Assembly: GCA_015233405.1 (NCBI GenBank)
Contig: JADFXT010000022.1
Span: 1 to 24,823, forward strand
Direction: 5' to 3'
Origin: Candidatus Omnitrophota bacterium
Lineage (GTDB): Bacteria; Omnitrophota; Gorgyraeia; Zapsychrales; Zapsychraceae
DNA length: 24,823 bases
The position numbers were made by a program, and so were the translations under genes. The notes beneath the pieces were generated by a model. The model ran no database searches. It was not told the origin of the DNA and saw only the letters and a program-made list of their open reading frames with translations. Within the stretch, counting starts at the first letter, position 1. The number at the start of each line of letters is the position of its first letter. Below are positions 8,793 to 10,603 of the stretch, piece after piece.

Positions 8793-8884
8793 GGAGAGGT
8801 GGCAGAGCGGCTGAATGCAACTCCCTGCTAAGGAGTTAACCTGGGTAACTGGGTTCTCGGGTTCGAATCCCGACCTCTCCGCCA
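8793..8884 (+). tRNA. tRNA-Ser(GCU), type II with long variable arm, CCA encoded
   Basis: Acceptor GGAGAGG/CCTCTCC. Anticodon stem ACTCC/GGAGT with loop CTGCTAA (anticodon GCT). Long variable arm. T-arm TCGGG-TTCGAAT-CCCGA, discriminator G, then CCA. Confidence 0.85.
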
Positions 8885-8928
8885 GTTTTTAGGTGAACCC
8901 TCCGACGAGAGCCATAGCTGGTTTTGGC

Positions 8929-8950
8929 TTGCGCAGAAGGGGATTCGAAC
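8929..8950 (-). other. Inverted fragment resembling a tRNA 3' end (T-loop plus acceptor 3' strand) from a different tRNA
   Basis: Minus strand reads GTTCGAATCCCCTTCTGCGCAAG, i.e. (G)TTCGAAT T-loop followed by T-stem 3' strand and a 7-nt acceptor-like run. There is no matching 5' half. A 12-nt GGTTCGAATCCC-type match is unlikely by chance in 25 kb. Confidence 0.3.
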
Positions 8951-9000
8951 TTTTTAATTTAAAAATCAAGGGTTTTAAGGCTAAAAGGAGGACTTGAATT

Positions 9001-9420
9001 ATGAGAAAAATACTATCGGTCATGTTGTGTTTAGGCTTAGTTGGGTGCGCAACAACGATGTCTCAGTCAATTGCGCCTAATAGGGAGAATTTACTAAAAC
9101 TTTCTATAGGTATGACAAAAGACCAAGCGCTGAACATTATGGGAACTAAAGCATTTACTGCCGGTGGTTTTAATTTTGTTGGTGGTTATAATACTGCAGG
9201 GCCAGCGGTAACTATTACGAACCCCTATCGTTCCGAAATCCTGCAAGGTAAAGATAAAAACCTTGAGGTAATATATTATGTAACTGATGATAAAACTGGA
9301 AATGGTGTGATAACAGATGATGACTTAACTCCTCTTGTTTTTGATAATGGTAAACTTATAGGATGGGGGAGGAGTTTTTTGCAAGATAATGCACAGAAAT
9401 ATGAAATAAGGATAAGGTAG
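9001..9420 (+). CDS. Outer-membrane lipoprotein, SmpA/OmlA (BamE-like) fold candidate
   Basis: Lipobox LGLVGC at residues 11-16 (signal peptidase II site). LKLSIGMTKDQALNIMG matches the GMTKDQV core of the SmpA/OmlA (BamE) domain. Strong RBS AAAAGGAGGA upstream. Confidence 0.65.
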   Translation: MRKILSVMLCLGLVGCATTMSQSIAPNRENLLKLSIGMTKDQALNIMGTKAFTAGGFNFVGGYNTAGPAVTITNPYRSEILQGKDKNLEVIYYVTDDKTGNGVITDDDLTPLVFDNGKLIGWGRSFLQDNAQKYEIRIR

Positions 9421-9434
9421 TCTTCTGAGGGAGC

Positions 9435-10265
9435 ATGAGTCTCAAAAGAATTAGAAACGTTAATGAAGTGGTGGAGCTTTATAACTCAACAACAAAAGAA
9501 GGTTCTCTATTTATATTCCGGGGGGTTTCTTGTGAAGCTTATCCTTTGTTTCCAAGGATTGAGTGGGATGAAAAGGCGAATAAGGCAGCTGAGCAAGGAA
9601 ATTTTAATGACTTCAAGAAGTCTCTTGAGAATCAAGGCTATTTTAAGCAAGACTTCATACACAATGATTTTAGAACGTTGGGCTTGGCACAGCACTATCA
9701 GCGTTTTCCAACTAGACTGCTCGATTGGACAAGTTGCATTTTAATAGCATTATATTTCGTATGTAAAAATAAGAAGAAACATAATCAGGATGGAGCTATT
9801 TGGTGTTTTCCTTTGCCCTTGGATTCCAATGACAGTATTTGGCTGACTCCAAGGGAAGAGAGCGTGATGTCCCCGTTTAATTTGGATCAGTTCAAGATTT
9901 TTATCTGCGGGTCTTTCATTGATGATTTTAAAATGCGTTTGCCAAAAAAGGATGGGCGGAAAGCGTTTGGTAACAGCAGAGATATAAAACAGCAATCAAT
10001 AATGACGTTGCACCCTAAAAATAAGGCTGGTAAATTCGGCAATCTGGAAGATTTAAAGCAGAAATATGGCTTGGAAAAGATTTTAGTCCCAAAAGGTTGC
10101 AAGAAAACAATTCTCAATGACCTTTCAAAGGATCCTTGGAGAATTACGCGCAATACTCTTTTTTATGGTGTATCTGCGAGGGCGCTGAAGAGTAAGGATA
10201 TCTTGAGTGATATAGTGGCAAAGAATCTCAAAGTCTACGATAGACGGGCTTTAATAAATCTATAA
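9435..10265 (+). CDS. FRG-domain protein (276 aa)
   Basis: Carries both hallmark FRG-domain blocks: SLFIFRGVS and LGLAQHYQRFPTRLLDWTSCILIALYF (consensus roughly FRGq… and aQHyGlPTRLLDWT). Lower GC than flanking core genes. Confidence 0.75.
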   Translation: MSLKRIRNVNEVVELYNSTTKEGSLFIFRGVSCEAYPLFPRIEWDEKANKAAEQGNFNDFKKSLENQGYFKQDFIHNDFRTLGLAQHYQRFPTRLLDWTSCILIALYFVCKNKKKHNQDGAIWCFPLPLDSNDSIWLTPREESVMSPFNLDQFKIFICGSFIDDFKMRLPKKDGRKAFGNSRDIKQQSIMTLHPKNKAGKFGNLEDLKQKYGLEKILVPKGCKKTILNDLSKDPWRITRNTLFYGVSARALKSKDILSDIVAKNLKVYDRRALINL

Positions 10266-10273
10266 AGGCATTG

Positions 10274-10441
10274 TTAGATAACGTAATCATAGTAAGATTC
10301 TGAGTTAGTTGGTTCTTTAGGTTTTATAGGTTTATTGAATATGGGTTCGTCTAGGGCGATGAGCCAGCCCATACCGCGTTTGCGGTGAATTTTTATAAGT
10401 AGCGGTATCTCAAGAGGTTGCAGGGTTCGCATTTCGTCCAT
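10274..10441 (-). CDS. Small ORF (55 aa) MDEMRTLQPLEIPLLIKIHRKRGMGWLIALDEPIFNKPIKPKEPTNSESYYDYVI, convergent with the FRG gene
   Basis: Open frame found by hand (below the 60-aa cutoff of the track). No RBS or family recognised. An imperfect A/T-rich inverted repeat (about 10455-10470 versus 10496-10518) lies just upstream on this strand. Confidence 0.2.
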   Translation of the reverse strand: MDEMRTLQPLEIPLLIKIHRKRGMGWLIALDEPIFNKPIKPKEPTNSESYYDYVI

Positions 10442-10603
10442 GACTACCCGCCAGATAAAAACAAAAACTGTAAGTTGTTATAAAATTATGATTTGCAGTT
10501 TTTTGTTTTGTTTTTGAGTGTTTTGGCGCCCTAAATATGCCCAAACACAGGTAAAGTGAATCCTCGGGCGTTAGGCCGGGGAGATTCATGAAAAAATTAA
10601 AAC

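Follow-up and report, generated by a model that had tools for sequence, protein, structure and literature searches.

The window analysed here is the whole of a 24,823-bp contig from a Candidatus Omnitrophica metagenome-assembled genome (MAG), and its subject is the stretch directly behind tRNA-Ser(GCU), positions 8885-10454. The Omnitrophota are an uncultured phylum with very small cells among its members. After the tRNA 3' end this stretch holds, in order, a trailer of ~68 nt, two cargo genes encoding a lipoprotein and an FRG-domain protein, and a convergent gene for a protein of 55 amino acids (aa). We consider it probable that the stretch is a single, complete mobile gene cassette of ~1.57 kb inserted at the 3' end of tRNA-Ser(GCU). 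Its features are as follows:

8793 to 8884, + strand: tRNA-Ser(GCU), the cassette anchor, whose last bases CCTCTCCGCCA form the left junction (ARAGORN; Rfam tRNA, 56.4 bits)
8879 to 8885, + strand: left copy of the core, CCGCCAG, the presumed crossover region (junction alignment)
8885 to 8952, + strand: trailer, ~68 nt, with GTTTTTAGGTGAACCC..., a hairpin, and GGGGATTCGAAC (nhmmer profile; alignment with locus L005)
9001 to 9420, + strand: cargo gene 1, 139-aa lipoprotein, DUF3192 (Pfam)
9435 to 10265, + strand: cargo gene 2, 276-aa FRG-domain protein, candidate single-gene defence effector (Pfam; PADLOC)
10274 to 10441, - strand: 55-aa hallmark gene of the cassette family (list of open reading frames [ORFs]; conservation)
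10442 to 10454, + strand: right-end core GACTACCCGCCAG, a degenerate copy of the tRNA-Ser 3' end (homology limits; four-genome alignment)

The ends of the cassette are defined to the base. Its borders read CCTCTCCGCCAG on the left and GACTACCCGCCAG on the right, with CCGCCAG as the common core, and on the minus strand the right-end core makes up the 11 bases upstream of the start codon of the 55-aa gene. Across all units of this kind, homology begins at GGCGGGTAGTC (read on the small-gene strand). CCGCCA was invariant in 21 of 21 aligned trailer junctions and was followed by G in most of them, and this held alike where the upstream neighbour was a tRNA, a small-gene unit, or other sequence. 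The tRNA 3' end at one border is thus matched by a repeat at the other, as in a classical tRNA-integrating island, and a wider resemblance to the tRNA end extends from AGGGTTCG to CCGCCAG, about 30 nt. Taken alone, GACTACCCGCCAG (12-mer, up to 2 mismatches) has a chance expectation of 0.99 and so is not beyond chance; it is significant only because it is conserved in more than 100 related loci. A first-pass annotation of this region, made from the letters alone, had placed tRNA-Ser(GCU) directly upstream, where ARAGORN and Rfam both found it (8793-8884), and had pointed to a tRNA-Ser-end-like motif at about 10443-10455; the motif exists as the right-end core of the cassette, one base away from where it had been put (10442-10454).

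The small gene was sought in genomes (one per species) and in metagenomes. 49 loci came from species-representative genomes, almost all labelled Omnitrophota, and 79 from metagenomes, and the family amounts to about 130 Omnitrophota loci, duplicate contigs common to both collections included. Across the loci a tRNA-Ser recurs 0.1-3 kb from the small gene, which points toward it; the anticodon is GCU, GGA, CGA, or UGA. The next feature following a small-gene unit (n = 162) was a trailer in 94 cases, a tRNA-Ser in 10, and the contig end in 48. About 110 trailer copies were recovered with an nhmmer profile, in a single orientation throughout; of the 110, 28 directly follow a tRNA-Ser and 31 border on the 5' end of another unit, with CCGCCAG in common, while a further 11 lie within 500 nt of a tRNA-Ser, 1 abuts tRNA-Asp, and 3 are near tRNA-Leu. 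What recurs at each junction is therefore the small gene, then a tRNA-Ser 3' end in degenerate form (AGGGTTCGC...CGTCCACGACTACCCGCCAG), then the trailer.

The layout that emerges for the family starts with a tRNA 3' end, or the end of a previous cassette, at CCGCCAG, followed by the trailer, one or two cargo genes on the tRNA strand, and the convergent 55-aa gene, whose 5' end carries the degenerate tRNA-Ser 3' end (AGGGTTCGC...GACTACCCGCCAG). The largest number of small-gene copies in an array on one contig is four, three of them full-length and the fourth partial; orientation is uniform in every array, and orphan tRNA-Ser 3' fragments of ~17 nt followed by a trailer are also present. These results show that the cassette family has spread across the phylum Omnitrophota and that its members pile up head to tail at tRNA-Ser of any isoacceptor. 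Literature searches found no title or abstract describing such an architecture, a weak negative given their incomplete coverage, and the family is apparently undescribed.

Several loci vary this layout. A few arrays, instead of being anchored at tRNA-Ser, sit at tRNA-Asp(GTC), which they abut, or 48 nt from tRNA-Leu(TAA) (L012 8531-8682, L015 10080-10294, L116 1815-2023), and CCGCCA also occurs in the tRNA-Asp 3' end and in the junctions beside tRNA-Leu. On the minus strand of L010 (6223-6260), GGAGAAAGCAGGGCTTAATTCTCCCTGCCTCTCCGCCA stands upstream of an orphan tRNA-Ser 3' fragment and its trailer, and can be drawn as an acceptor-stem plus T-arm minihelix with the rest of the tRNA missing. L005 holds two 'empty' hairpins (9269-9433 and 10650-10715) made of two inverted cassette ends alone (TTGACGCTCARGCGAACCCT ... 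AGGGTTCGCCTRG), one splitting the 5' end of a small gene and the other right behind tRNA-Ser(GCU). In the same locus a truncated small-gene unit of 77 nt (13075-13153) closes a cassette with a methylase and a 385-aa protein, just upstream of dnaX.

Comparison between loci bears directly on mobility. On another Omnitrophota contig (L005/L006) a relative of the FRG gene (73% identity), with the same upstream DUF3192 gene and convergent small ORF, lies directly behind tRNA-Ser(GGA). The homology between the window and L005 starts in the T-arm/3' end of the tRNA, amounts to ~93% over the first ~68 nt and 75% over the three genes, and ends at GACTACCCG. The proportion of synonymous differences (pS) between the two was 0.47-0.49 for the FRG and small genes and 0.84-0.85 (saturated) for TadA and DnaX, which dates the sharing of the module to a time after the split of the two genomes.

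Four MAGs (L046-L049, about 5990-7763 in each) share a second cassette with an identity of 99.5% or more, which carries a class A beta-lactamase-family gene (Beta-lactamase2, E = 7e-43) together with SnoaL and lies beside tRNA-Ser GCU, UGA, CGA, and GGA with unrelated flanks. In the four-genome alignment, identity begins at CCTCTCCGCCA and stops at GACTACCCG, with CCA next in two of the four. The same cassette is array-internal in three further genomes (L042, L044, L045). This pattern indicates a very recent spread among Omnitrophota of a class A beta-lactamase-family cassette, whose activity is predicted.

An empty site is available as well. In L061, dnaX lies 51 nt behind tRNA-Ser(GCU); L005 likewise has dnaX immediately past its final unit, and in L008 it is near the final unit. 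Taken together, the cassette at four isoacceptors, the L005 module, and the empty site of L061 exclude conserved core genes at this position and show that insertion takes place at a short core of the tRNA 3' end. A synteny check had been proposed in the first-pass annotation against core-gene status, and both the direct run of tRNA-Ser(GCU) into dnaX in L061 and the L005 cargo at tRNA-Ser(GGA) speak against that status. The same annotation had proposed a small integrated remnant; the horizontally mobile DNA at the tRNA-Ser 3' end is real, but it is a complete cassette and not what is left of a larger island.

The empty site also differs in its last bases. The tRNA-Ser(GCU) of L061 (5732-5821) ends ...CCTCTCCGC-TGA, with CCA not encoded. 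Where a tRNA-Ser gene is occupied and directly joined to a trailer, the reading is mostly ...CCTCTCCGCCA (e.g., window 8879-8885), with CCG and no encoded CCA in a few. It therefore seems that the tRNA gains its genome-encoded CCA from the left end of the cassette.

The convergent 55-aa ORF had been listed in the first-pass annotation as one element of a remnant. It is present at 10274-10441, and far from being incidental it is the most conserved and the defining gene of the cassette family. An exhaustive HMMER search returned 33 cluster representatives with up to 85% identity, all of which share the same 55 residues while their N-terminal extensions are unrelated; gene callers often predict exactly 55 aa. 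Nucleotide identity of the small-gene unit is 81-90% across more than 60 loci. Codon-position entropy over 31 copies was 0.37/0.34/0.72, variation gathering at third positions, and the ratio of nonsynonymous to synonymous substitution (dN/dS) against L005 was 0.15. By these sequence-based measures it is a real protein-coding gene, evidently under purifying selection. Profile searches found no match to the protein in Pfam, NCBIfam, PHROG, or PDB, a scan of a viral contig collection found no relative of the gene, and the AlphaFold2 model is not confident (pLDDT 53.6).

Trailers start as GTTTTT..GTGAACC.TCCGACGA and continue into a variable hairpin. They end in one of two ways, GGGGATTCGAAC (as in the window, with the T-loop-like motif at 8939-8950) or GTCGTGGACGCGAACCCT; the two types align together, and GTCGTGGACGCGAACCCT is the 5' end of the small-gene unit, inverted. 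Conservation of the trailer against L005 (about 93% identity) is well above that of the module as a whole (75%). As a family, trailers fold better than shuffled sequences (mean z -1.7 to -2.9). No one secondary structure fits all trailers as a consensus: because their subtypes use different inner stems, RNAalifold gave just -3.3 and -1.2 kcal/mol. Pair counts were therefore replaced by per-sequence z-scores. In an Rfam scan of 7400-10800 (E up to 10) only the two tRNAs and chance-level matches appeared, and the trailer and the small-gene unit fell into no known RNA family. The segment 8929-8950 had been taken for an inverted tRNA 3'-end fragment. The T-loop-like GGGGATTCGAAC is indeed found there, but this segment closes the trailer on its inner side and is conserved with it; the idea that it descends from a second, inverted tRNA was rejected, as the 5' half of the T-stem is missing and the segment aligns with the GTCGTGGACGCGAACCCT variant and the small-gene 5' end.

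The first cargo gene had been described as a lipoprotein with an SmpA/OmlA core. It does carry the lipobox LVGC and a BamE-like N-terminal motif, GMTKDQ, but DUF3192 (PF11399) is the better fit: residues 78-126 matched that family at 59.3 bits (cut-off 26.9), which places the protein in it, whereas BamE/SmpA_OmlA (PF04355) reached 22.1 bits over residues 26-52 only, below its cut-off of 23.2 and outside membership. Among the other cassettes a homologue occurs in L005 only (58% identity), and a distant BamE-like lipoprotein is the sole cargo of L011.

The second cargo gene was recognized in the first pass by two FRG hallmark blocks, LFIFRGVS and AQHYQRFPTRLLDWT, and the hidden Markov model search suggested there agreed, Pfam FRG (PF08867) matching residues 26-117 at 61.9 bits (cut-off 25). 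The PADLOC search suggested alongside it supported the proposed defence candidacy: 13 PDC-S15 profiles matched (best E = 5.7e-32), PDC systems being defence candidates in PADLOC. Both blocks, F28-R29-G30 and T93-R94-L-L-D97-W98-T99, are kept. G30, T93, L96, D97, and W98 are invariant over 113 FRG family members, and the family-invariant residues of this protein comprise these five together with F108, R182, and Q186. The first strand has the aromatic-Arg pair F28-R29, like the R-S-E type, and D97, R182, and Q186 are invariant polar residues; a classical catalytic Glu is not evident, none being invariant among FRG family members. The first-pass annotation held FRG domains to be mechanistically uncharacterized, which does not wholly apply, given that a computational study placed Frg in the ADP-ribosyltransferase (ART) superfamily, as a possible NADase effector (PMC9503650). 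The FRG model weakly resembles ADP-ribosyltransferase toxins, which is weak but consistent support for that assignment (PMC9503650). We infer that the protein is a putative ART-like, NAD+-using effector with a candidate defence role. It would be a single-gene candidate for abortive infection or toxin-type defence, acting independently of the lipoprotein.

About 13 proteins scoring at least 213 bits form a subclade with this FRG protein, the following matches scoring 145 bits or less. Other close relatives are found in unrelated mobile contexts, beside an integrase, a DUF1016 nuclease, a transposase, PIN, Fic, and HigB, and neither a trailer nor a small-gene unit was found beside other members of the subfamily. 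A conserved FRG partner was sought among these neighbours and rejected: the lipoprotein-FRG combination is confined to the window and L005, and a functional pair is not supported beyond these two cassettes because the neighbours of the other subfamily members differ.

The wider cargo pool, after removal of near duplicates, contains 110 proteins in 79 families, 62 of them singletons. Defence-type cargo according to Pfam and PADLOC includes two FRG proteins, restriction-modification genes (an EcoRI-type methylase, an AccI endonuclease, N6_N4 methylases), GmrSD_N, HNH, and KilA-N. Also carried are S-adenosylmethionine methyltransferases, a serpin, SIMPL, ankyrin, TPR, DprA/SLOG, GIY-YIG, and beta-lactamase proteins, along with many secreted or membrane proteins without a family. 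The pool is mixed, so location alone implies no defence role.

No integrase, resolvase, or transposase family was found in the window, where the ORFs of the cassette encode the lipoprotein, the FRG protein, and the 55-aa protein. A Pfam scan of 136 flanking ORFs (230-520 aa) from the genome-collection loci likewise showed no Phage_integrase, resolvase, rve, or DDE among the 25 families with at least 3 members. As a tentative account, which we find plausible while stopping somewhat short of calling it probable, we propose a phylum-wide, integron-like platform on tRNA-Ser, in which recombinase-less cassettes are captured serially at CCG(CCA) by an enzyme encoded elsewhere, the 55-aa protein is a new kind of accessory factor, and the FRG gene is one item of a shared, fast-moving pool to which defence genes and a beta-lactamase also belong. 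Site-specific recombination at the short CCG(CCA) core would be what moves the cassettes, with the enzyme encoded elsewhere in the genome and with the trailer hairpin, together with the inverted repeat common to the trailer and the small-gene end, serving as the recognition structure. Each new cassette would enter beside the tRNA, displacing the older ones outward; the 55-aa protein would assist recombination as an accessory factor, and an excised circle would join GACTACCCGCCA to the trailer.

A number of observations weigh against reading the stretch as a mobile cassette that moves in this way and carries a defence effector. Since no recombinase was identified, the recombination chemistry is entirely inferred, and because only families with at least 3 members were listed in the flank scan, an integrase confined to one or two of those 136 ORFs would have escaped notice. 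Neither an excised circle nor a junction of attP type was seen. Only a very short stretch is identical at the core (CCG to CCGCCAG), shuffled sequences fold as well as the trailer in the window does on the + strand (z = -0.23), and the accessory role of the small protein is a guess, made with no confident fold or family match. Defence genes are a minority of the cargo, most cargo families being unrelated to defence. All data come from MAGs or metagenome contigs, with uncertain binning labels and with duplicates in the counts. Finally, the FRG copy of L005 is frameshifted. A 5-nt deletion at L005 8715-8725 (against window 9897-9901) divides the FRG gene of L005/L006 into ORFs of 162 and 124 aa, and past the shift dN/dS is 0.22, so the inactivation is recent or else an assembly error common to both records.

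Four other explanations were weighed. An integron-type system would treat the small gene and trailer hairpin as attC and the tRNA-Ser end as attI, with an IntI-like enzyme from elsewhere acting on folded single strands. It would accommodate the uniformly oriented arrays, the cassettes of one or two genes with extremely diverse and mostly unknown cargo, the conserved hairpin-forming junction that separates them, and the 'empty' hairpins of L005 built from two inverted ends alone. The junction, however, holds a protein-coding gene with clear codon periodicity, unlike attC, and anchor and core are a tRNA 3' end; no intI appears among the families listed for the array flanks, the window itself being flanked by T2SSE, TadA, and membrane genes, and no RYYYAAC/GTTRRRY cores stood out at unit boundaries on inspection by eye only. 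We regard this explanation as unlikely. Non-autonomous, palindrome-associated elements of the HUH, IS200/IS605 type, inserted 3' of CCGCC(A) and mobilized by a TnpA from elsewhere, would share the insertion always 3' of one short motif that is repeated at the right end, the hairpin just inside the left end, the strictly uniform orientation, and the absence of long terminal duplications. Yet no TnpA or Y1 gene was seen, the right end has no clear hairpin, known members of the IS200/IS605 family have far shorter conserved ends, and the resemblance to the tRNA end over about 30 nt (AGGGTTCG...CCGCCAG) is typical of att sites, all of which leaves the HUH explanation with very little probability.

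A decayed classical island, the residue of an integrase-bearing, tRNA-integrating island or prophage from which most genes are gone but two cargo genes and att scars remain, fits the tRNA 3' end at one border with the degenerate tRNA-end-like repeat at the other, the missing integrase in the window, and the occurrence of related FRG genes in integrase-bearing mobile contexts (L001). Independent decay, though, would not keep yielding one structure of one or two genes, and the compact layout, with its conserved trailer and a small gene under purifying selection, is found in more than 100 copies. With no integrase among the 25 families listed for the flanks, and with near-identical copies at four sites attesting present-day mobility in the compact form, decay appears very improbable. 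Least credible of all, to the point of being nearly dismissed, is a recombination hotspot in which tRNA-Ser and the small gene are fixed and the cargo between them is swapped when DNA that has been taken up recombines homologously. At 81-93% nucleotide identity, the trailer and small gene are conserved enough to act as homology arms, but one cassette lies beside four tRNA-Ser isoacceptors and its left side shares just 11 nt of tRNA; moreover, tandem arrays duplicate the supposed flanking gene, orphan 17-nt tRNA fragments exist, and the small gene is altogether missing from empty sites.

Around the cassette, nearly all genes of the window are on the + strand. To the left are a T2SSE-type ATPase, tRNA-Arg(ACG) (7771-7846), TadA, and tRNA-Ser(GCU) (8793-8884); to the right follow membrane/SPFH/UbiA genes, an aldehyde dehydrogenase, Tex, DnaX, and RecR. 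G+C content is 38.9% in the cassette, 44.2% in the left flank, and 42.7% in the whole window. The lower G+C content that had been noted in the first pass is thus real but modest and not specific, and on its own it delimits nothing because a membrane gene downstream is lower still (35.3%). In several relatives (L061, L005, L008) dnaX lies just past the tRNA-Ser(GCU) cassette(s) or the tRNA itself; in the window 10.6 kb separate it from the cassette (10456-21068). This interval, with a low-G+C membrane/SPFH/UbiA block (35-39% G+C; two ORFs without a family), the aldehyde dehydrogenase, and Tex, may be a lineage-specific insertion or rearrangement. Between tex and dnaX an ORF at 20516-20800 (+ strand) encodes a 94-aa GIY-YIG protein (Pfam, 60.4 bits), flanked by a 28-nt inverted repeat, TGTCATTCCCGCGAAAGCGGGAATCTAG (89% complementarity), and further copies of a GGGAATGACA hairpin motif occur nearby, as far as about 21050. 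The bracketed stretch, 20479-20832, looks like a small selfish GIY-YIG element in a low-G+C gap. A GIY-YIG gene is also among the cassette cargo, in one cassette (L023).

If the proposed platform is real, it would give the Omnitrophota a defined and searchable mechanism of gene flow, in which the precise att-like ends and two diagnostic features, the 55-aa marker gene and the trailer, would let every cassette be pulled out of metagenomic data in the way integron cassettes are. Array-type gene capture would then also be possible on a tRNA end without a linked integrase, which raises the question of the acting enzyme. A common mobile pool would hold the FRG (ART-like) candidate, restriction-modification genes, and GmrSD. 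The near-identical beta-lactamase-family cassette (predicted activity) at four sites shows recent transfer within the pool, and the cassette in the window offers a compact, natural two-gene context for the function of FRG.

As for the FRG protein itself, it shares with its family (PF08867; PDC-S15; the Frg clade of the ART superfamily, PMC9503650) the invariant residues, a stand-alone gene, and association with mobile DNA. It differs in belonging to a small, sharply separated subclade of a family that is without a solved structure or tested activity.

Among mobile systems, integrons and CALINs (clusters of attC sites lacking integron-integrases) resemble the cassettes in their same-orientation arrays, very small cassettes, conserved hairpin-forming junction, and hugely diverse, mostly uncharacterized cargo (beta-lactamase, methyltransferases, restriction-modification genes, lipoproteins). 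Unlike integrons, the cassettes are anchored at a tRNA 3' end instead of an attI beside intI and encode a conserved protein in the junction, and no attC core motifs (by eye) or IntI were found. The pdif (Xer-dependent) modules of Acinetobacter plasmids have one or two cargo genes, inverted short sites, and no recombinase of their own, relying on a host enzyme; in contrast to these, the cassettes have sites unrelated to dif and are chromosomal, tRNA-linked, and arranged in directional arrays. Tycheposons and other tRNA-targeting integrative elements that build tandem arrays, and likewise the cis-mobilizable elements (CIMEs) of streptococci, share with the cassettes the insertion at tRNA 3' ends, including those of tRNA-Ser, the outward displacement of older elements that is proposed here, the partial tRNA copies that mark old junctions, and niche or defence cargo, and some lack an integrase of their own. 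The tycheposons of Prochlorococcus are multi-kb elements, 474 of 501 of which carry a tRNA-specific tyrosine recombinase (bioRxiv 10.1101/2020.12.28.424599). Unlike them, the cassettes measure about 0.4-4 kb with one or two genes, use any tRNA-Ser isoacceptor, and all have the 55-aa gene and the hairpin trailer; they bear no tyrosine recombinase themselves, and the surroundings of the about 130 loci showed no integrase. A tRNA anchor, the lack of a nearby recombinase gene, a hairpin junction, and a dedicated micro-protein are joined in none of the systems compared.

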